Source: Alphaproteobacteria bacterium (GTDB lineage: Bacteria > Pseudomonadota > Alphaproteobacteria > MPNO01 > UBA830). From it: a DNA stretch of 64,000 nucleotides. The stretch covers positions 3,072,001 through 3,136,000 of the forward strand of contig OZ251539.1 in the NCBI GenBank assembly GCA_965243135.1. The letters are read 5' to 3'. The position numbers and the translations under genes are program-made. The stretch's first letter is position 1. Every line of letters starts with the position of its first letter. The notes below the pieces were generated by a model that was not told where the DNA came from, searched no databases, and saw only the letters and a list, made by a program, of their open reading frames with translations. Positions 473 to 33,594 of the stretch are shown piece by piece.

Positions 473-2014
473 TCAGGCGGCCTCGCAATCGAACCCGACG
501 ACGTTGCGCTCCTCGCGGCTGAACTCCACTCCGATCAGGTGGACCGAACGACCGAAATGGCGGTACTTGTCCGCGTAGCCCTTCTCTCGCAGCTGCGCGA
601 TCGCGGTCCCTTCCCGCCCGCGCTCCACCACCTTGAACTCGAACAGGTAGACGCGCCCGTCGGCGCGGATCGCCATGTCGGCGCGCCCCCGGCTGCCGCT
701 GTCCTCGGCCACCGGCTCGAAGCCCTCCATCAGAAAGCAGCTGTGGATAACGCTCGCGTAGTGGGCCTCGTACTTCGCGACGGGGTTGTTCATGTACCAT
801 TGGTGCGGAATGGCGGCGAAAACGCCGCGGAACAGGGTCCCGATGCGCTTGAAGTCGTTCGCCTCCAGCAATTCGCCCAGCCGCAAGCGCCCCGTCTTCT
901 TGCGCGCCTCGGCCGGGAGCAGTTCTCCCAGCAGGGCCTCGCCCAGGCTCTGGCGCACCTCGAGGTTCGGGTAGTCCAGCCTGTAACGTCTCCCGCCGTC
1001 CTCCTCGCCGGCGATGGTCAGGTAGCCGGTCTGGAACAGAAGCGCCTCGACCGAGATATTGTCCACGTCGAAGGCCGAGAGCAGGCTCTCGCTGCCGGTC
1101 ATGCCGTCCAGGTCGGGAGTGGGCAGGCCGCGGCGCGCCAGCGTCTCGACCAGGAAGGTCGGCGTGCCGCTCTCGAACCAGTAGTTGCCGAACCTGCGCT
1201 CGGCGAGCAGCAGCAGGACGCCGAACGGGTTGTAGAGCTTCTCCGGCCCGCACCAGTTGTAGCCGTTGTACCAGCGCCGGATTTCGTCCCGGTCCAGGCC
1301 CTCCAGTTCCGGGGCGAAGACCGCGTCCAGCTCCGCGTCCGTGTAGCCGCAAATGTCGGAGAACTCCGGCGCCAACGTGATGTCGCGCAGGTTGTTCAGG
1401 CCAGAGAACAGGCCAGCTTTCGAGAACTTGCTCACCCCCGTCAGGAAAACGAAACGGAGCTGCCTGTCGCAAGCCTTGATCGCCCCGTACAGGCTGCGCA
1501 GGAAATCGCGGTTGGCCCGCGCCAGATCCCGATCGCCGAGCGCGTCCAGAATCGGCTTGTCGTACTCGTCCACCAGAACGACCGCCCGCTGTCCGGTGCG
1601 CTCGTGCAGGGCCGCGATCAGTTCCCGGAAGCGGATCGAAACTCTGGCGCTGCCCGGCTCGATGCCGGCCAGCCTCTCCGCCGCCTTCAGTTGCGATTCC
1701 GTTTCTTCCCGAACCCCGTCCGGGTCGCCGAAATCGCCCCCGCCGAAATCCAGCCGCACGACCGGATGGCGCGCCGACCAGTCCCACCCGTCGTGCACGG
1801 CGAGACCCCGGAACAGCTCCTCGCTTCCCTCGAACAGCTCCTGCAGCGTGTCCACCAGCAAGCTCTTGCCGAACCGGCGCGGACGCGACAGGAAGTAGTA
1901 ATCGCCTCCTTCGACAAGGCGGCGCAGATGGTCCGTCTTGTCGACGTAGTGGCAGTCTCTCGTCCGGATTTTCCGGAGGGACGTCATGCCGATCGGAAGC
2001 ATGCGTTTCGTCAT
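473..2014 (-). CDS. AAA-ATPase-like domain plus C-terminal PD-(D/E)XK nuclease (PDDEXK_9/DUF1703-type) protein
   Basis: LPIG..YVDKT, SRPRRFGKS Walker A, VLVDEYDKP Walker B, YNGY, GRADM..FEFK..QL motifs. Start placed at MTKRMLPIG. Confidence 0.9.
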   Translation of the reverse strand: MTKRMLPIGMTSLRKIRTRDCHYVDKTDHLRRLVEGGDYYFLSRPRRFGKSLLVDTLQELFEGSEELFRGLAVHDGWDWSARHPVVRLDFGGGDFGDPDGVREETESQLKAAERLAGIEPGSARVSIRFRELIAALHERTGQRAVVLVDEYDKPILDALGDRDLARANRDFLRSLYGAIKACDRQLRFVFLTGVSKFSKAGLFSGLNNLRDITLAPEFSDICGYTDAELDAVFAPELEGLDRDEIRRWYNGYNWCGPEKLYNPFGVLLLLAERRFGNYWFESGTPTFLVETLARRGLPTPDLDGMTGSESLLSAFDVDNISVEALLFQTGYLTIAGEEDGGRRYRLDYPNLEVRQSLGEALLGELLPAEARKKTGRLRLGELLEANDFKRIGTLFRGVFAAIPHQWYMNNPVAKYEAHYASVIHSCFLMEGFEPVAEDSGSRGRADMAIRADGRVYLFEFKVVERGREGTAIAQLREKGYADKYRHFGRSVHLIGVEFSREERNVVGFDCEAA

Positions 2015-2020
2015 CCAAAG

Positions 2021-2049
2021 AGAGTAGGCCGCCGTGCCGGAACCGTCAA
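2021..2049 (-). promoter_or_regulatory. sigma70-like promoter, probably leaderless transcript
   Basis: TTGACG-N17-TACTCT, then 6 nt to the ATG at 2014, with no RBS. Confidence 0.65.
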
Positions 2050-2202
2050 GAAGTCGGCGGCGGCAGGCCTGTCCCGCGCTGCGTCCCCTGGCGCGACAAG
2101 CAGCCGGCAATTTCCGCGGCGGCACGGGCGGGCGGCGGGGAAAAGCGCGGAGGCGAGCGAACCCGCCGCTCCGCGGAAATCCTGCCCCGCCCGCAGCAGG
2201 CG

Positions 2203-2530
2203 ACCACGATTGCAAGTACGTTCGACACGCTCAACGAGCGGCTTGGAGGCCGCGGGCGAACGCCTACGGAAGGCGCCGCCAGCAAAGGCGACGCGCGTCG
2301 GCACCGACGTCAACGCCGGCTTCGCGAGCCTCGACGGCAAGGTCGACGCCCTCGTCGCGGAAACCAGGGCCGACGCAACGCGACGGCAAGCGCCCTCGCC
2401 AGGGAAAGCCGCGCGCCTCGAAACCAGTACGATGATCGTCGCGGCAGGCCTCGCAGCCATACCTGCAGCTGGTTCGGCGCCGGAGATCCGCGCCCGCGAC
2501 GACATGCGCCGCAAGCGGCGAAACGCCTGA
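2203..2530 (+). pseudogene. Degenerate DUF1640/CCDC90-like coiled-coil membrane protein
   Basis: TTIASTFDTLNERL / (frameshift) LEAAG ... VNAGFASLDGKVDAL ... RLETSTMIVAAGLAA. FDTL..RLEAAG is the family N-terminal motif. No intact start. Confidence 0.45.
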
Positions 2531-3989: not shown

Positions 3990-4065
3990 CGTCCGTATAT
4001 CCATGAAGGGGCCCGCACGATGATATTTTTTTATTTCACTCCTGTCCGAATCGTCCTATATATAA

Positions 4066-4352
4066 GGGGCCGGCACGGTTCGGCTATGGCGATAAACGGC
4101 TTGTGGAATAAACGTCGTGGACCCGGGGGCGGTACCCGGCGCCTCCACCAAATCGCATCCTCCGTCTTCGCGGCGGGGATGAGGTGCGGGGGCGAAACAG
4201 GATCGACACGCGTCTAAAGACATGCTTTTCGCCCGGTATGGCACCGCCGTTAGCGGGCCGACAACACAAGTGCCAACGATAACGAATTGGCTCTCGCTGC
4301 CTAGATTTGGGCAAGCGCGGTTCGGGGGCGCCGGGCAACAGAAGCCCCCACT
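4066..4352 (+). ncRNA. ssrA: Two-piece (circularly permuted) alphaproteobacterial tmRNA
   Basis: Acceptor piece ends CGCCTCCACCA at 4150, followed by an intervening hairpin (4151-4187). Coding piece starts GGGGGCGAAACAGGATCGAC at 4188 and pairs with the acceptor strand (G3-U70). Tag ANDNELALAA-stop at 4272-4304. Outer ends approximate. Confidence 0.95.
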
Positions 4353-4481
4353 TTCCTTTTTCTACACTCTGGAACACTCAATACGCAGCCCCCGACCAAC
4401 GTGGGACCTGTGGCGGCGGGTATCTTCAAACGGCCCCAGGACGCGTGAGGGTGATCCAGCAGAATTATGCCACGTGTATGA

Positions 4482-5102
4482 ATGCGTGTCCTGTCGAACA
4501 TCCAGCCGACGCCCGAGCAGCTGAAGATATTGGTTGACGACCTTTCGGGTTTTCGGCTGATGCGAGGCGCGGCCGGCTGCGGCAAGACAACTACGGCGCT
4601 ACTGCGCCTCCGCCAACTTTGCCGGTCACGGCAGAACAGAAAGAATCGGCTGGGCCACGAAGACCCTGTCCAGGTTCTCGTTCTTACTTTCAACAGAACG
4701 CTCCGCAGCTATGTCTTGCAACTTGTCAGGGAGCGGATTCCGAACTCGGACGATTTCGTCATGCTGCTGTCCTTTCACCCCGACGTTCTCGACCACCAAG
4801 GTGTGGTTTTCACGACGACGAACAACATCTATCCCGCTTGCGAGCGCGCCGAAGGGCTTGCCGGTTTCGAAGCGATGTTCGCTGACCGGGTTGTCGGCCG
4901 TTACGGCCGAATGCATAAGGATAAGAAGCCTGCTTGGCCCACGGACCGGCAAGCGGAAGTTCTGTATCCGGGCGAATTGTCGTGCAACCACCTGCTCACG
5001 ATAGAAGTTCAGATGGAACGGACTGCCGACACGATAATGGGCGCGTTGGGGAGCCTCGACATGGATTTGTGCGTTCGCCACGCGCCGGAGGTGTTCTTAT
5101 GA
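4482..5102 (+). pseudogene. In-frame chimera: UvrD/SF1 helicase N-terminus fused to a DarT (DUF4433)-like C-terminal half
   Basis: aa 1-92 carry PTPEQ, GAAGCGKT (motif I) and VLTFNRTL (motif Ia). After about nt 4758 come VVFTTTNNIY and PTDRQAEVLYP, resembling the DarT catalytic-Glu motif. Both domains are incomplete. Confidence 0.65.
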
Positions 5103-6805
5103 AGCAGCGAGACATGTTCCCCGGATCCATAGCGTCGCGTAGCGTGGAGGCTTCCGACGACCGGAGGGAAAGCACTCGGAGATCCGCTCTGTGGGCAGCT
5201 TATGGCGACGCGCTCGGGTGGATCAGCGAATTGGCGGACGAGTCGGGGCTGCGGCGTCGGACAGGCGGCGCGGCGCTGCGCCGACCCGTCGAATGGACTC
5301 GGCGGATTGGCGGCCGCGCAGGCGTTCAGGTTCCGCTTCCGCAAGGCTGCTATTCTGACGATTCGCAGTTGCGGCTCGCGACAAGCCGCGCCGTCGGCGT
5401 CGACGGCTTCGATGTCGAGGCGTTCGCCAAGGTGGAACTGCCGATCTGGCTGAGCTACGCGCTCGGCGGAGGAAAATCGACGAGCGCCGGCGCGCGCAAC
5501 CTGGCCAGGCGCGGCACGCGCTGGTTCTCCAACAGCTTCAAGGGATGGGCGCGGTCTGGAGGAAACGGCGCGGCGATGCGCGTTCAGCCGCACGTATGGG
5601 CATCGCCCGCTCCCGGCGCCGCAGAGAGCTTTCTTCCCGACGTGGTGCGCAACGCGATTTGCACTCATTCTCATCCAACCGGAATCATGGGTGCGGTTTT
5701 GCATGCGCTTACGGTCGCTCGCGCGGCGGAAACCGGTCGGCTCCCGTCTCCCGACGACCTCATGACCGCCGTTGATACCGCGGCTGCCCTCCCGGAAATG
5801 ATCCAGGGCGATACGGAGGTTGGAGTTTATTGGCGCATGGCCGTAGAAGCGGAGACGGGCGCATTCGACGAAGCGTGGGCTCGGGCGGTCGGCAAATGCC
5901 GGGAGGCCGTTGACGAAGCGATCCGGATCGTCGGTAGGAGCGCTTCCGAGCCGACGGGAGCGAATGGTTACGCAGCGCTCGTCGCAGGCTTTCGGCTACG
6001 GGACGCGGATAGAAGAGGGGACGGCATTTTGACGGCGGTGACCGCCGCAAGCTTGGGATGGTGCGAGCCGCGACCCGAAGAAGCTTTGGTCCTCGTCGCG
6101 AATGCGCTCGGCACGGATACCGACACCATCGCAACGATGGCCGGCGCGATTTTCGGCTTTATCGCCGAAGCCGAGCCGCCGGTCGATGTTCTCGACGCGA
6201 CGTTGTTCCGGTCGGAAGCTGACCGGCTGGCGGAGATCGCGCACGGCGGTGGAAGAACCGTGCACCGCTATCCTGATTTGCTGCATTGGGTGGCGCCGGC
6301 GACGCGCAGCGATGCATTGACCAGATTGGAGGATGGAGCTTTATGGGTGCGCGGGCTTGGACGGGCCGTGGCGAAAGACAATCCTATCGCCCCGGAGAAG
6401 GGCGAATTCCAGTGGCAGTGGGTCGAACTCGAAGACACGGGTCAAACTTTGTTGATCAAACGCCGCGAGGTTCTCGCCTTATACGAGGAAACGACCGGCG
6501 CGGCGCCACCCTCGGGACGCGGTGCGTCGGATCCGGCCTCTCTGCAAACCGGAAAAATCGCGGAAACTTCGTCGAAATTTGTACAGAATCCTTCAGGGAG
6601 CGCGAGCGAACGTCCCAACGCGCCGCATGACCTGCAAGGCGTTCTGGAATACATGGAGAAGAACAAGAACGATGACCGGCTTGTTGGCGCCACGTTCCGC
6701 CGTGTCGTCAACAAGGGCACGCCGGGAGAAATCGCAGCGTTCACCGCAGCGATGATAGATATGCTCCGACATCCTGCAGACGCCCAGCGCCGCAGCTCAG
6801 CGTAA
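5099..6805 (+). CDS. ADP-ribosylglycohydrolase (ARH/DraG family) with C-terminal extension
   Basis: AAYGDALGW, YSDDSQL, GNGAAMR, THSHP and DTDTIATMAGAI motifs; ATGA overlap with the upstream ORF. Confidence 0.9.
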   Translation: MKQRDMFPGSIASRSVEASDDRRESTRRSALWAAYGDALGWISELADESGLRRRTGGAALRRPVEWTRRIGGRAGVQVPLPQGCYSDDSQLRLATSRAVGVDGFDVEAFAKVELPIWLSYALGGGKSTSAGARNLARRGTRWFSNSFKGWARSGGNGAAMRVQPHVWASPAPGAAESFLPDVVRNAICTHSHPTGIMGAVLHALTVARAAETGRLPSPDDLMTAVDTAAALPEMIQGDTEVGVYWRMAVEAETGAFDEAWARAVGKCREAVDEAIRIVGRSASEPTGANGYAALVAGFRLRDADRRGDGILTAVTAASLGWCEPRPEEALVLVANALGTDTDTIATMAGAIFGFIAEAEPPVDVLDATLFRSEADRLAEIAHGGGRTVHRYPDLLHWVAPATRSDALTRLEDGALWVRGLGRAVAKDNPIAPEKGEFQWQWVELEDTGQTLLIKRREVLALYEETTGAAPPSGRGASDPASLQTGKIAETSSKFVQNPSGSASERPNAPHDLQGVLEYMEKNKNDDRLVGATFRRVVNKGTPGEIAAFTAAMIDMLRHPADAQRRSSA

Positions 6806-6950
6806 ACGAACCGGTTCACGTTCGGCTGCGCACATGACGATATCGCGCGGAACCTGCCGGGTTCTGCGAGAGAACTCCTGTATACGAAGCTGAACCCCGA
6901 ACGCTGAGTAAAACAAACCTGCTCGCTGCCCGTCCATACCCGGTTTTCGG

Positions 6951-7090
6951 GAGGCGTTTGCGCTGCGCTGTTTTTTGTCGGCGGCCGTCCGCTCGGCACC
7001 CCCGTGGACCCTCCGCCCACCCGTCGGCGAACCCCAAGGGTCGCGCAGGCTGGCGAAAGCGAAGCGCGAAAAATTTTCCGCCGGAAACTC
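6951..7090 (-). repeat. Inverted, degenerate copy of the dispersed repeat associated with the small coiled-coil genes
   Basis: gaggcgtttgcgctgcgctgttttttgtcggcggccgt aligns with the reverse complement of 8820-8863; agcgcgaaaaattttccgccg aligns with about 8793-8810. Confidence 0.55.
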
Positions 7091-7901
7091 GGGGAGCGGA
7101 CTTCCTGCCGTTGCGGTCGTTGTCTGAACGCGGCGTCCGGCAACGCAGGCGGCTCTGGCCGAACACGCGCTGGCGTCGAGCGCGGCGAAGCGCTTGGCGC
7201 GAAGGCGAGTTCAGCCGAGCCCACGGAGCGGTTTGCCGGGCTGCAGGGCGAGGCCGGCGCGGCGGGCGCTCGGTTTGCGCACCGTCAACCGTTCGGGAAC
7301 GACGGGCGAGCCCGTTCATGGGAACGCTCGCCGACCTCGACCGGGCGGTTTCCGGCGCCCTGTCGCCGGTGCCGATAACGAATGCCCGGAGCGGAAATGA
7401 AACCCGTCTCGTCAATGTCGCGCGCTCGGGAGACGCTCTACCGTCGCCGGGCGCCTGCCTCGAAACGTGGCGGGCCGGTTCGCCACGGCCGAGCATCCGT
7501 TTCTCGCCGAACGTTCGCCGCGAGCCTCGGCCGTGGCGCCGCGCCCGAGGCGGTTTGCCGCGGCGCGAAGAACATGCTGCGGAGAAACGCCGCCCTGCGT
7601 CGTCCGCGAGGCCGGCAAGCTTCGGCGGCGAATTCTCCGGGATTCCGTCGTCGTCCGCCCCGTAGACTGTCGACGAAAGGCCGAACGCGGAACGAACCTC
7701 CCCTGCGCCGCAAGGTCGAAGCGCTGTCGCGCGCGGAGAAAGCCGGTCTTCTTCTTGAGGAACGCACCGTCGCGGTAGCCGCCCGAGGCGGGCTGGCCGC
7801 GCTTCGGAGTTCCGGGGACGTTGCCCGGCCTTCCCCCGGCTTCGGCGCGGAAAACGGGGCGGCGCGGAAATTCGCGCCGCCTCATGCCGCCGACAGGATA
7901 G

Positions 7902-7930
7902 TTGCGCGGCGCGAACGTTTCGCATACGTT
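7902..7930 (+). promoter_or_regulatory. sigma70-like promoter conserved before all four small coiled-coil genes
   Basis: TTGCGC-N17-TACGTT here, at 8394-8422, and on the minus strand upstream of 32764 and 33266. Confidence 0.6.
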
Positions 7931-7958
7931 CGTCTTCCCGAAGTCACTGGAACATCTT

Positions 7959-8321
7959 ATGGAACAGTTCTCTTCCGAACTCGTCGCCATTCTTGGTGTC
8001 GGCGCTTCCATGCTTGGCGTCGGCATTACCGTTATCGGGCTGGTTCTTCAGCAGGGCCGCCGGATCGACCGCCGGATCGACGGCCTTGCCCTGCGCATGG
8101 ACGAACAGGACCGGCGGACGGATGACCGGTTCCGGCAGCTGACCGATCAGATGAACGAACGGTTCCGGCAGCTGACCGATCAGATGAACGAGCAATTCCG
8201 GCAGATGAACGAGCAGTTCCAGAGGTTGAGCGAGCGCGTCGCGCGAGTCGAGGGCAAGTTCGACCTGCTCGAGGCTTTCGTCGAGCACCGGAAGGAGCCG
8301 CCGGCCGAGGCGGCGGAATAG
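7959..8321 (+). CDS. Small N-terminal TM plus coiled-coil protein, paralogue A (120 aa)
   Basis: Hydrophobic LVAILGVG..VIGLVL, repeated RFRQLTDQMNE, LSERVARVEG; near-identical paralogues elsewhere in the window. Confidence 0.85.
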   Translation: MEQFSSELVAILGVGASMLGVGITVIGLVLQQGRRIDRRIDGLALRMDEQDRRTDDRFRQLTDQMNERFRQLTDQMNEQFRQMNEQFQRLSERVARVEGKFDLLEAFVEHRKEPPAEAAE

Positions 8322-8450
8322 CGGCGCCCCGCTTCGGCGCGGAAAACGGCGCGGCGCGGAAATTCGCGCCGTCTCATGCCGCCGAGAAGATAGTTGCGCA
8401 GCGCGCGCATTTCGCGTACGTTCGCCTTTCCGAATTCGCAAGGGCGTCGT

Positions 8451-8759
8451 ATGGAACAGTTTTCTTCGGAACTCCTCGCCATTCTTGGCGTCGGCATCGC
8501 CGTTATCGGGCTGGTTCTTCAGCAGGGCCGCCGGCTCGACCGCCGGATCGACGGCCTTGCCCTGCGCATGGACGAACAGGATCGGCGGACGGACGACCGG
8601 TTCCGGCAGCTGACCGATCAGATGAACGAGCAATTCCGGCAGATGAACGAGCAGTTCCAGAGGTTGAGCGAGCGCGTCGCGCGAGTCGAAGGCAAGTTCG
8701 ACCTGCTCGAGGCTTTCGTCGAGCACCGGAAGGAGCCGCCGGCCGAGGCGGCGGAATAG
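8451..8759 (+). CDS. Small TM plus coiled-coil protein, paralogue B (102 aa)
   Basis: Tandem duplicate of 7959-8321 lacking one 7-aa and one 11-aa unit. Confidence 0.85.
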   Translation: MEQFSSELLAILGVGIAVIGLVLQQGRRLDRRIDGLALRMDEQDRRTDDRFRQLTDQMNEQFRQMNEQFQRLSERVARVEGKFDLLEAFVEHRKEPPAEAAE

Positions 8760-8904
8760 CGGCGCCCCGCTTCGGCGCCGCAAAGCGGCGCGCGGCGGAA
8801 ATTTGCGCTGCCGCCGGCCGTACGGGCAGCCGACGAAAAATACGACGCAGCCGCAAACGCCTCGCCTTGCGGAACGCCGCTTCATGGCCTAAAATTCCAG
8901 CACG

Positions 8905-9378
8905 ATGGTCGAGGATTCGATGGATTACCAAAGCATCGTGGAACGCGCCATGCGGGGCGTCGTTCGCGATATTCTCAACCGCGTGGCGGACGATGGCCTG
9001 CCCGGACAACACCACCTCTACGTGACCTTCGAGACCCGGCATCCCGGCGTCCGCCTCGCCCAGTCCCTGATGCGAAGGTACCCCGACAAGATGACGATCG
9101 TACTGCAGCACCAGTTCTGGGGTCTGGACATCGACGAGGACGCTTTCGAGGTGACGCTCAAGTTTTCGGGCAGGAACGAGCGCCTGAGAATCCCGCTGGA
9201 AGCCGTAACGGCGTTCGCCGACCCTTCGGTCGAGTTCGGACTCCGTTTCCATGCGATCGAAGAAGAAGAAAGCGAACGGGCGGAAGGGGACGAACGGGCG
9301 GACGAGGAGAAGGACGCCGGGGACCCGGAAGCCGGCCAGGTCGTCGCCCTGGACTCTTTCCGCAAGAAAAAGACTTGA
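8905..9378 (+). CDS. sspB: ClpXP adaptor SspB, alphaproteobacterial type
   Basis: [45 protein letters not shown]-terminal [10 protein letters not shown]; upstream TTGCGG-N17-TAAAAT. Confidence 0.93.
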
Positions 9379-31729: not shown

Positions 31730-32476
31730 CGTGGCCTCCCGTGACGGCGCTCACCGAGGACGAGGCTTCGCCGCGCGGCGCCTTGCGTCGTCGCGACCTC
31801 GGCCCCCGCCCTCCGCGAGCTTCGGGCGCCTGGCCGCGCCTCCTGATTTCCGAACGAACGGCGGAAACCGTCCGAAGCGATGTCCGCTTGGTGAACTTGC
31901 CGTCGCGCCGCGCAGAAATCCCTGCACCCGAGGCACCCGAGGCACGACTATACACGACCATACACCCCGATTCACGGTGCGCATAGCCTCAAGGGGCCCG
32001 CGTTCCGGTTTCGGACGTCGCCGACAGGAACGGCTCCCAACCGCCGAGGCCGCTCCGGCGCTTCGACTCGCCAGCCAACCCGTCCCCGCGACTGTCGCTC
32101 GTCAAGCTTCGGAGTCGATAGGGGGTTACGCACCTCCGCCCAGCGTTGTTCGATAACGCGAAGAACAACGCGGTTCCACGAAGGAAAATCGAGAATCGAT
32201 TGGTTGTGGAAGATTTCTGCGGAGGCGCTGCAGCTCGCCGACATCGGTGCAGACATGACGCGAATCGAGGCAAAGGCAGCGTTCGCGCTCCGCAATTTTC
32301 CCGTCGACCGGTCGGCGGCAGCGCAAATTCCCGCGCCGTCCCGTTGCGGCGCAGGGGGAAGTCCGGGCAGCTTCCCGAGACCGCGCCCCGAAACCCCGAA
32401 GCGCGGCCACCGGCAGCCGCGAGAGGGCTGGTCAACGAACCTTGTTGCCGAAGCGGGGCGGCCTCGGCCTCGCCCG

Positions 32477-32764
32477 CTATTCCGCCGCCTCGGCCGGCGG
32501 CTCCTTCCGGTGCTCCACGAAAGTCTCGAGCAGGTCGAACTTGCCCTCGACGCGCGCCACGCGCTCGCTCAACTCCCGGAATTGCTCGCTCAACTCCCGG
32601 AATCGCTCGTTCATCTGGTCGGTCAACTGCCGATCCCGCTCGTCCATGCGCAGGGCAAGGGCGTCGATCCGGCGGTCGAGCCGACGGCCCTGCTGAAGAA
32701 CCAGCCCGATAATCGCAATGCCGACGCCAAGCATGGTGATGATTTCGGGGGAAAACTCTTCCAT
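32477..32764 (-). CDS. Small TM plus coiled-coil protein, paralogue C (95 aa)
   Basis: Homologous to 7959-8321; GGAGG RBS. Confidence 0.85.
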   Translation of the reverse strand: MEEFSPEIITMLGVGIAIIGLVLQQGRRLDRRIDALALRMDERDRQLTDQMNERFRELSEQFRELSERVARVEGKFDLLETFVEHRKEPPAEAAE

Positions 32765-32999
32765 GAACTGCCTCCGTCGAGAAGTTGAACGTATGCCAAA
32801 CGTTCGCGCCGCGCAACCTTCCTGGCGGCTGTCCGTCCATGTCGGAGGCGGCGTGAAGTCCCGCGCCGTCCCGTTGCGGCGCCGGGGGAAGTCCGGGCAG
32901 CTTCCCGAGACCGCGCCCCGAAACCCCGAAGCGCGGCCGCCGCGAGAGGGCTGGTCAACGAACCTTGTTGCCGAAGCGGGGCGGCCTCGGCCTCGCCCG

Positions 33000-33266
33000 C
33001 TATTCCGCCGCCTCGGCCGGCGGCTCCTTCCGGTGCTCCACGAAAGTCTCGAGCAGGTCGAACTTGCCCTCGACGCGCGCCACGCGCTCGCTCAACTCCC
33101 GGAATTGCTCGTTCATCTGGTCGGTCAGATGCCGGTACTGCTCGTCCATGCGCAGGGCAAGAGCGTCGATCCGGCGGTCGAGCCGACGGCCCTGCTGAAG
33201 AACCAGCCCGATAATCGCAATGCCGACGCCAAGCATGGTAATGATTTCGGGGGAGAACTGTTCCAT
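33000..33266 (-). CDS. Small TM plus coiled-coil protein, paralogue D (88 aa)
   Basis: Homologous to paralogue C, one heptad shorter; GGAGG RBS. Confidence 0.85.
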   Translation of the reverse strand: MEQFSPEIITMLGVGIAIIGLVLQQGRRLDRRIDALALRMDEQYRHLTDQMNEQFRELSERVARVEGKFDLLETFVEHRKEPPAEAAE

Positions 33267-33594
33267 GAACTGCCTCCGTCGAGAAACTGAACGTACGCCA
33301 AACGTTCGCGCCGCGCAACCTTCCTGGCGGCTGTCCGTCCATGTCGGAGGCGGCGCGAAGTCCCGCGCCGGCCCGTTGCGGCGCCGGGGGAAGTCCGGGC
33401 AGCTTCCCGAGACCGCGCCCCGAAACCCCGAAGCGCGGCCGCCGGCAGCCGCGAGAGGGCTGGTCAACGAACCTTGTTGCCGAAGCGGGACGGCCTCGCG
33501 ACGCCTCGACCGCTGGTCAACCCACACCGATACTTCCCTCACGACAAAGGTTGCCGGCCGTCCGCGCTTCAGGATTGAAGATGGGCGAGCTCTC

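Follow-up and report, generated by a model that had tools for sequence, protein, structure and literature searches.

Genes and remnants next to ssrA

The window analyzed here is the whole 64,000-nucleotide stretch of contig OZ251539.1 from an Alphaproteobacteria bacterium. Near its start, an island carries a short chimeric reading frame followed by an intact gene of the ADP-ribosylglycohydrolase (ARH) family (Table 1). The location beside ssrA, which formed part of the original prediction from this DNA, was recovered by two programs: Rfam places the tmRNA gene at the left border of the island, and ARAGORN detects a permuted tmRNA at 4055-4395.

Table 1. Features of the locus in window coordinates
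Feature	Position	Strand	Description
ssrA, two-piece alphaproteobacterial tmRNA	4030..4352	+	Rfam alpha_tmRNA, 251.7 bits, E 4.9e-73; left island border
Strain-specific insertion	4353..8904	.	~4.5 kb, between ssrA and sspB
Chimeric ORF darH'-'darT	4482..5102	+	206 aa; in-frame fusion from a probable ~1.47-kb deletion
darH remnant	4482..4751	+	Helicase aa 1-90 of about 465-485; only Walker A and motif Ia
darT remnant	4761..5099	+	C-terminal half, from aa ~108-116 of ~222-230
darG3	5099..6805	+	568 aa from ATG; intact ARH-fold antitoxin gene
ARH catalytic domain of DarG3	5195..6163	+	aa 33-355; PF03747
DarG3 C-terminal extension	6296..6799	+	Predicted by models: beta domain aa ~400-460, disordered linker 467-504, helical bundle 510-567

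Several relatives lack the insertion. The distance between ssrA and sspB is only about 110-200 bp in G001, G002, and G003, homology to G000 ends near 4356 and restarts at 8905, and homology within the genus also ends at about 4356. The ARH gene had no real match in 40 relatives (0/40, one being marginal with E 9e-4), and no further DarT was found in the genome of the strain itself. The G+C content of the remnants is 58%, compared with 66% for the window. Absence from the 40 relatives, insertion between ssrA and sspB, deviating composition, and the lack of another DarT in the genome together argue for a foreign origin of the island, which was very probably acquired horizontally next to ssrA. 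We found no integrase and no att-like repeat within the island, and no second, directly repeated copy of the 3' end of ssrA; scans of the island borders for promoters and terminators gave results at chance level.

The chimeric reading frame

The 206-aa protein joins the start of a helicase to the second half of a DarT toxin, as had been proposed from its motifs. Searched against Pfam, it matches DarT (PF14487) with an E-value of 3.7e-13 and 50.1 bits, for a cut-off of 22.5. The match is confined to aa 90-205, corresponding to positions 85-200 of the 201 in the profile, so that the suspected DarT character of the C-terminal half is significant at the profile level. This half is 88% identical to aa 108-222 of an intact DarT (P0003), relative to which it shows a 2-residue deletion and changes. 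The motifs TTNNxY and QAEVLYP are kept and the invariant HFT motif is gone (columns from alignments A1 and A5). Hence, the window copy is not a full-length DarT with its active site.

When isolated, the N-terminus obtained weak scores with helicase models (7e-5 for GajB of PADLOC and 0.033 for ResIII of Pfam). We regard its PADLOC matches (GajB, mad8, C3a187, PbeA) as generic P-loop/UvrD similarity that implies no membership in these systems. By tblastn, aa 1-90 correspond to the start of the full-length UvrD-type helicases of related loci, with 42-63% identity (62% when DarH of locus L021 is searched against the window), and Walker A and motif Ia are visible in the alignment. DarH is not full-length in the window; its intact homologues match both UvrD-helicase and UvrD_C in Pfam. 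Since helicase motifs II-VI are missing, together with the N-terminal NAD-binding part of DarT that includes HFT, the sequence suggests that the chimera is most likely inactive both as motor and as toxin.

The intact ARH gene

The ATG of darG3 (5099-5101) overlaps the TGA stop codon of the chimera (5100-5102) by ATGA. The product matches ADP_ribosyl_GH (E 9.9e-28) and keeps 51 of the 51 columns that are invariant in an alignment of 39 sequences, in agreement with the initial description of an intact, overlapping ARH of 568 aa. Among its motifs, SDD (86-88), GNGAAMR (155-161), and DTD (340-342) are invariant in alignment A2 and present in the window, and the DTDT stretch aligns to ARH3. We take the acidic residues of SDD and DTD to be Mg ligands. 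The AlphaFold model (pLDDT 88.5, pTM 0.80) gave Foldseek matches to MJ1187, ARH3, and ARH1. An ARH-fold antitoxin gene thus lies directly 3' of the darT part, where darG3 is expected.

Beyond the catalytic domain, aa 368-568 had no Pfam match. The C-terminal ~200 aa, folded alone, reached a pLDDT of 79.3, and a wide structure search with this part returned only generic three-helix matches with Z <= 6.8, of which the best is under the noise level that this search has for helical bundles; these matches hardly reached into the beta domain. The predicted complex between DarT and DarG3 (the pair of L007, with alignments A4 and A5) had a score of 0.00 and speaks neither for nor against binding.

A conserved three-gene operon

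The original prediction expected the homologues of this ARH to co-occur with helicase and DarT genes. This is the case in 50 of 55 loci from many phyla, where a helicase and a full DarT are directly upstream of the ARH; a single uninterrupted match to both was obtained in 44 of the 55. The intact operons encode a helicase of ~465-485 aa and a DarT of ~222-230 aa, their stop and start codons often overlap, and by Pfam the neighbours are UvrD-helicase/UvrD_C, full-length DarT, and ARH. Genes encoding a macrodomain or NADAR, which were not expected as regular companions, were indeed absent from the 298 ORFs flanking the 55 loci (0/298 at E <= 1e-5, for ORFs of at least 110 aa in ~2.6 kb around the operon that are not hidden under longer ones). 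No NADAR or macrodomain antitoxin was found in the island of the window either. These comparisons of sequence indicate that the locus descends from a three-gene operon, darH-darT-darG3. The postulated operon remnant is supported as well: helicase aa 1-90 and DarT from aa ~108/116 to the end are what has been kept.

Toxin loss with antitoxin retention recurs across loci. Counting the window, 6 of 56 loci have an ARH without an intact DarT (the others are L004, L006, L009, L031, and L034). As all loci were found via the ARH, copies without it are invisible to the survey, and the apparent precedence of toxin loss is thus partly built in. We also identified a second and independent in-frame helicase'-'DarT fusion (P0002, 181 aa), whose DarT part begins at the same strand, LSF, and a third case in L009, broken further by frameshifts. 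Fusions amount to 2 among the 120 homologues listed, 112 of which have the HF[TS] motif.

Relation to DarHTG and to other known systems

The proposal of a third type of DarT system, in which a helicase joins the toxin and an ARH acts as antidote, matches a system that has been published since. DarHTG (Liu-DS3) is described as consisting of the helicase DarH, DarT, and the ARH-like DarG3 (Nucleic Acids Res 2026;54(6):gkag308, April 2026, PMC13069673). Its DarH is UvrD-like and without a 2B domain, and the system is reported to protect E. coli against T4, T7, T5, and SSL_2009a (PMC13069673). According to the same article, mutants in the active site of DarT and in the ATP site of DarH lose defence, and a mutant of DarG3 was unobtainable (PMC13069673). 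The operon family studied here has the same parts in the same order, i.e., a UvrD-like helicase of ~465-485 aa, a DarT, and an ARH-fold antitoxin, and the fold neighbours of DarG3 from the window are archaeal and eukaryotic ARHs, like those named in the paper (PMC13069673). In contrast to DarHTG, the copy in the window is dead: only darG3 is whole, and what remains of the other genes are 90 helicase residues fused to the C-terminal half of DarT. One premise of the original prediction, that only macrodomain or NADAR antitoxins reverse DarT, is superseded by the DarG3 described for DarHTG (PMC13069673).

A Salmonella plasmid carries an operon of this kind, with a helicase of 465 aa, a DUF4433 protein of 221 aa, and an ARH of 561 aa. 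It is present in 21 of 5426 complete E. coli genomes, with at least 99% identity in all of them and 100% in the 10 that were listed. We matched this E. coli/Salmonella operon to the published DarHTG by architecture, not by the sequence of the tested construct. Compared with the window, its ARH is 34.8% identical (E 1e-103), its DarT matches the darT part with E 3e-23, and its helicase aa 1-86 are 44% identical to the darH remnant (E 4e-20). The proteins of the window are thus only distantly related to the enterobacterial ones. A search of full-text literature for the pairing of DUF4433 with ADP-ribosylglycohydrolase found none. The string 'DarG3/DarT3' in a 2023 Vibrio preprint results from reference superscripts joined to the word.

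To place the toxin, we compared the DarT profile of the operon family with solved structures. It matches DarT1 (E. coli C7, PDB 8baq) with E 3.5e-19 over nearly the whole length, and the column of the catalytic Glu aligns. This was the only DarT structure with E <= 1, a threshold that none of the solved DarT2 chains reached; a PDB search with the single sequence of an intact DarT had no match, so that DarT1 was found by the profile search only. Hence, in sequence the DarT clade of the operon is closer to DarT1 than it is to DarT2 of Thermus or Mycobacterium. DarT1 is guanosine-specific. DarTG1 differs in its NADAR antitoxin, whereas DarHTG has an ARH and a required third component, the helicase.

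Other systems share the antidote fold or the principle. The pairs of ADP-ribosyltransferase (ART) toxin and ARH immunity protein and the DraT/DraG system have an ARH-fold antidote, and both are among the sequence or fold matches of DarG3 (8za7 of Listeria; 2woe, DraG). These pairs and DraT/DraG act on proteins. In contrast, the partner transferase of DarG3 belongs to the DNA-modifying DarT family, and DarG3 adds a C-terminal extension of ~200 aa. DarTG2, with its thymidine-specific DarT and macrodomain DarG, resembles the operon in combining a DNA ADP-ribosyltransferase toxin and an enzymatic antidote in abortive-infection defence (PMC13069673), and differs from it by the macrodomain, which is missing from the 298 ORFs flanking the ARH homologues. 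Finally, T4-like phages have orphan NADAR enzymes that resemble antitoxins and are reported to neutralise DarTG1 (PMC11257639). As antidotes without a toxin, these enzymes may serve as a model for darG3, should it be a retained orphan. However, they have another fold and serve phage counter-defence, whereas darG3 would have been orphaned by the decay of a chromosomal island.

Decay of the operon and fate of the antidote

We conclude with high confidence that the locus is a decayed DarHTG-type anti-phage toxin-antitoxin operon in a horizontally acquired island beside ssrA, where one deletion of ~1.47 kb fused the stumps of the first two genes and left darG3. The in-frame loss amounts to ~375 residues of the helicase and ~107-115 of DarT, HFT among them. 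This size derives from intact loci (helicase start at ~5800-5950, DarT end at ~7900-8000), and the breakpoints are placed within a few codons by proteins that are 55-88% identical and not by close DNA. A single event of this kind would have removed the helicase from residue ~91 to its end, together with the first ~107-115 residues of DarT, and joined the stumps in frame. The 5' end of the operon would have been spared, as would its start codon and the ATGA overlap, so that coupled translation of darG3 may still take place.

If the intact system works like DarTG, its DarT would ADP-ribosylate single-stranded DNA upon infection, DarG3 would use its ARH domain to remove the modification in uninfected cells, and DarH may supply or sense the ssDNA substrate. 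That an ARH removes ADP-ribose from DNA is something that both the paper (PMC13069673) and we infer. The antidote, now alone, may be a leftover that has not yet eroded or a retained orphan guarding against incoming DarT-type toxins.

The selection of such an orphan, either as standing immunity (anti-addiction) against DarT toxins from mobile elements or competitors or for another de-ADP-ribosylation task, would refine the decay reading without contradicting it, and we consider it possible, if rather unlikely. It is consistent with the full set of invariant residues and the translational coupling kept in darG3, with the 6 of 56 loci that keep an ARH without an intact DarT, and with the precedent of the phage NADAR enzymes that neutralise DarTG1 (PMC11257639). 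Furthermore, the fused form was found in 2 studies, and the same chimera occurs in a separate protein cluster (P0001, 99% identical, with 2 substitutions). However, the open frame of darG3 may merely reflect a recent deletion, and our survey, seeded on the ARH, over-represents retention.

A bolder version of this idea, which we regard as speculative and improbable, is that decay of DarHTG takes a preferred path. One in-frame weld of helicase start and DarT tail would kill motor and toxin while sparing the promoter, start codon, and coupling, the ARH would become a selected orphan immunity gene, and DarG3 would cleave ADP-ribose from a DNA base. This base might be guanine, given that the DarT clade is DarT1-like. 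If true, base de-ADP-ribosylation by DarG3 would be an activity that the ARH fold is not known to have.

It is very improbable that the chimera works as a new protein in its own right, such as a P-loop-fused mini-ADP-ribosyltransferase or a DarG3-binding decoy, forming a two-gene module with darG3. It is in frame, has about the normal length of a DarT, and retains TTNNxY and QAEVLYP, the latter with the catalytic Glu, and the P0002 fusion enters DarT at the same LSF strand. Yet, it lacks HFT with the first ~107-115 residues of DarT, has 90 of ~465 helicase residues, and its DarT part, compared with the intact P0003 to which it is 88% identical, has lost 2 residues and changed at others. Fusions are also rare among the homologues listed and that of L009 is frameshifted, and two or three in-frame events fit chance at 1 in 3 each.

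The fusion point was bridged without difference by contigs in 4 of 4 public runs from 2 studies, one run being possibly the source sample of the window itself (X1 4163-7196, X3 4122-7196, X4 4322-5318, and X5 4368-5149, all crossing 4751-4761 with 0 differences). With these contigs, the same chimera in the independent cluster P0001, no further DarT match in the genome, and nothing found in favour of an artefact, a mis-join in assembly or annotation hiding a full operon can be practically dismissed.

Significance

The system is already known, published and phage-validated as DarHTG (PMC13069673), and since the predicted system has thus appeared in print, our finding adds nothing new for discovery. 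Its value is one of natural history and is modest: it documents the death of a toxin-antitoxin defence operon in which the antidote outlasts toxin and helicase, as in 6 of 56 loci of an ARH-seeded survey, and it brings to light two to three independent helicase'-'DarT fusions. In addition, the placement of the toxin nearer to DarT1 would provide, from sequence similarity, a concrete substrate hypothesis for the putative activity of DarG3.

A helicase-DarT fusion beside an intact ADP-ribosylglycohydrolase gene

The original prediction described an ORF with a helicase start and a DarT tail, overlapped by an ADP-ribosylglycohydrolase (ARH) gene beside ssrA, and this was confirmed in every particular. 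The chimeric ORF has a significant Pfam match to DarT (PF14487, E 3.7e-13), restricted to residues 90-205 and to profile positions 85-200 of 201; its first 90 residues taken alone score weakly against helicase models. The ARH ORF matches PF03747 (E 9.9e-28) over residues 33-355.

Coordinates of the features discussed in the window
Feature	Position	Strand	Description
Predicted AAA-ATPase and PD-(D/E)XK nuclease protein	473-2215	-	580 aa; PF09820 (E 1e-58), PF08011
tmRNA gene (ssrA)	end at 4352		
Chimeric ORF	4482-5102	+	206 aa
Match to helicase aa 1-90	4482-4751		
Match to DarT aa 116-230	4761-5099		
ARH ORF (DarG3)	5099-6805	+	568 aa counted from the ATG; overlaps the chimera stop by ATGA
Tandem repeat	7795-8808		units 7835-8330 and 8327-8808, 83-97% identity
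Two further repeat units	32280-33440	opposite to the tandem units	66-78% identity

Residue 108 of P0003, an intact DarT 88% identical to the remnant, aligns to window residue 94, which places the fusion junction within window residues 91-94. Missing are about 375 residues of the helicase and 107-115 of DarT (about 1.47 kb). The loss takes away motifs II-VI of the helicase, and DarT is left without its invariant H-F-T motif but with TTNNxY and QAEVLYP. The Glu of QAE is aligned with a residue that is Ala in the solved DarT1 of E. coli C7, presumably through an engineered mutation, and this fits a catalytic Glu. Contigs of all four runs (two studies; the source sample may be among the runs) cross the fusion point without difference, and a separate protein cluster holds the same chimera with two substitutions. 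The fusion is real in the genome.

The ARH is usually found in a helicase-DarT-ARH operon

Using the ARH as query, with one genome per species, we obtained 55 loci across many phyla (Spirochaetia, Binatia, Acidobacteriota, Actinomycetota, Bacteroidota, Alpha-, Beta-, and Gammaproteobacteria). In these loci, residues 90-205 of the chimera map directly upstream of the ARH, and residues 1-90 at a distance of about 2.1-2.2 kb on that side. The ORFs at these places, whose stop and start codons often overlap, encode a UvrD-helicase/UvrD_C protein of about 465-485 aa and a full-length DarT of about 213-232 aa (Pfam). When five intact helicases and as many intact DarTs were searched against the 55 loci, both genes were found upstream of the ARH in 50, which supports the proposal that the window holds the remnant of such an operon. 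Each gene gave a single uninterrupted match in 44 of these 50. The helicase has an insertion in L005 and L035 (a DDE transposase in the latter), the frame changes in DarT in L008 and in the helicase in L048, and contig ends cut the operon in L020 and L047. The ARH lacks an intact toxin in five of the 55 loci (L004, L006, L009, L031, and L034): L004 and L031 keep the DarT tail alone, and L006 and L034 have no trace of DarT or helicase beside the ARH. The Spirochaetia chromosome OZ253572.1 carries three ARH copies (L001, L006, and L007), two of them in complete operons; that of L006 is a shortened orphan of 499 aa, 14 kb from L001.

Neither a macro nor a NADAR domain was found at E <= 1e-5 in the 298 flanking ORFs of the 55 loci (the longest non-overlapping ORFs, with a minimum of 110 aa, up to about 2.6 kb from the operon). 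The neighbours vary between loci and include many defence or mobile genes (SIR2, Shedu SduA, JetD, TIR, AbiU2, ApeA, restriction-modification systems, Mrr, IrrE/HTH pairs, transposases, and integrases). Three Terriglobia or Acidimicrobiales MAGs (L013, L014, and L018) have a second UvrD-type helicase, distantly related to that of the operon (25-27% identity) and within a few kb of it. In L013 and L018 this helicase is extended at the N-terminus and about 770 aa long, and in L014 it has 436 aa; in L018 it adjoins a Shedu SduA gene. These second helicases look like typical defence-island neighbours.

Relation to DarHTG

The helicase-DarT-ARH system is already known. An article (PMC13069673, Nucleic Acids Res, April 2026) describes DarHTG (Liu-DS3), composed of DarT, a UvrD-like helicase without 2B domain (DarH), and an antitoxin resembling archaeal and eukaryotic ADP-ribosylglycohydrolases (DarG3). 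According to its authors, a DarG3 mutant was impossible to construct, and the system is most abundant in Thermodesulfobacteriota and Bacteroidota. Besides this article, our full-text literature search found no description of DarHTG, DarG3, DarT3, DarTG3, or DUF4433 with an ADP-ribosylglycohydrolase. All three window pieces are homologous to a Salmonella plasmid operon (helicase 465 aa, DUF4433 221 aa, ARH 561 aa), which is likely Liu-DS3. Of 5426 complete E. coli genomes, 21 share this operon, with at least 99% identity in all and 100% in the 10 listed.

Of the 51 columns that are invariant in a 39-sequence alignment, the window DarG3 retains every one, including SDD (86-88), GNGAAMR (155-161), and DTD (340-342). 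Its structure model is confident (pLDDT 88.5, pTM 0.80), and the ARH domain matches MJ1187 (E 2.9e-9, TM 0.79 on target) as well as ARH3, ARH1, and a Listeria ART-ARH immunity protein. A small beta domain, a disordered linker, and a helical bundle follow, and we could assign no family to these three parts. A profile of 40 operon-type DarTs (one row being the window chimera) matches the solved E. coli C7 DarT1 (8baq, E 3.5e-19) and no other DarT chain at E <= 1. Judged by sequence, this clade is nearer to DarT1 than to DarT2. DarT1 modifies guanine, and given this nearness we hypothesize that the clade might target the same base.

Genomic context

No other DarT was found in the genome itself, nor an ARH in 40 relatives, where one match was marginal (E 9e-4 over 98 residues). 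The distance between ssrA and sspB is 110-200 bp in three genomes of the genus, against 4.5 kb in the window; in a fourth relative the spot is taken by a different, similarly sized insertion. The G+C content of the remnants is 58%, compared with 66% for the window. The missing ARH in relatives, the insertion, and the G+C content indicate that the copy arrived by horizontal transfer at a hot spot on the tmRNA side and then decayed. We sought an integrase or att repeat in the island and none remains. Pfam confirmed SspB, fumarase, ThyA, and DHFR.

In relatives this neighbourhood is a chromosomal hot spot: an unrelated insertion of about 4.4 kb separates ssrA from sspB in G004 (L072, G004:C1:2265500-2271000), and about 5.6 kb lies between thyA and ssrA in G002 (L074, G002:C1:1951300-1957900). 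The window's AAA-ATPase/nuclease protein, which is encoded 2 kb upstream of ssrA, past folA and thyA, has no PADLOC match. A unit of about 440-490 bp, over which metagenome depth is raised, is present in the island as a tandem duplicate and belongs to a repeat family dispersed in this genome. Its products are two small proteins (139 and 121 aa) that have no significant match in Pfam and give the impression of coiled coils.

Recurrent loss of the toxin

Among the best 120 of 510 chimera homologues, 112 have the HF[TS] motif, six are N-terminally short, and two have a Walker A motif at their start. One of these two is the cluster of the window itself; the second, P0002 (181 aa, encoded on a 2.59-Mb contig), is an in-frame helicase'-'DarT fusion of independent origin. 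Compared with the window chimera, it has 28 aa less of the helicase and enters DarT at the same LSF strand, and Pfam matches it to DarT profile positions 89-200 alone. A third independent decay of this kind lies in a Bacteroidota MAG (L009:7221-7953): the first 75 residues of the helicase run into DarT at about its aa 70, frameshifts then break up the DarT part, and the ARH downstream is intact. Hence, the window, P0002, and L009 represent three separate weldings.

The window locus is very probably a decayed operon of the DarHTG type, and the original interpretation is supported, though the system it proposed is already known. The recurrence of these fusions, in small numbers and in a survey seeded with the antidote, fits the logic of toxin-antitoxin systems, in which the surviving deletions are those where the toxin is lost and the antidote still expressed. 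The window copy is dead, its antidote gene is intact, and this gene is possibly still useful.
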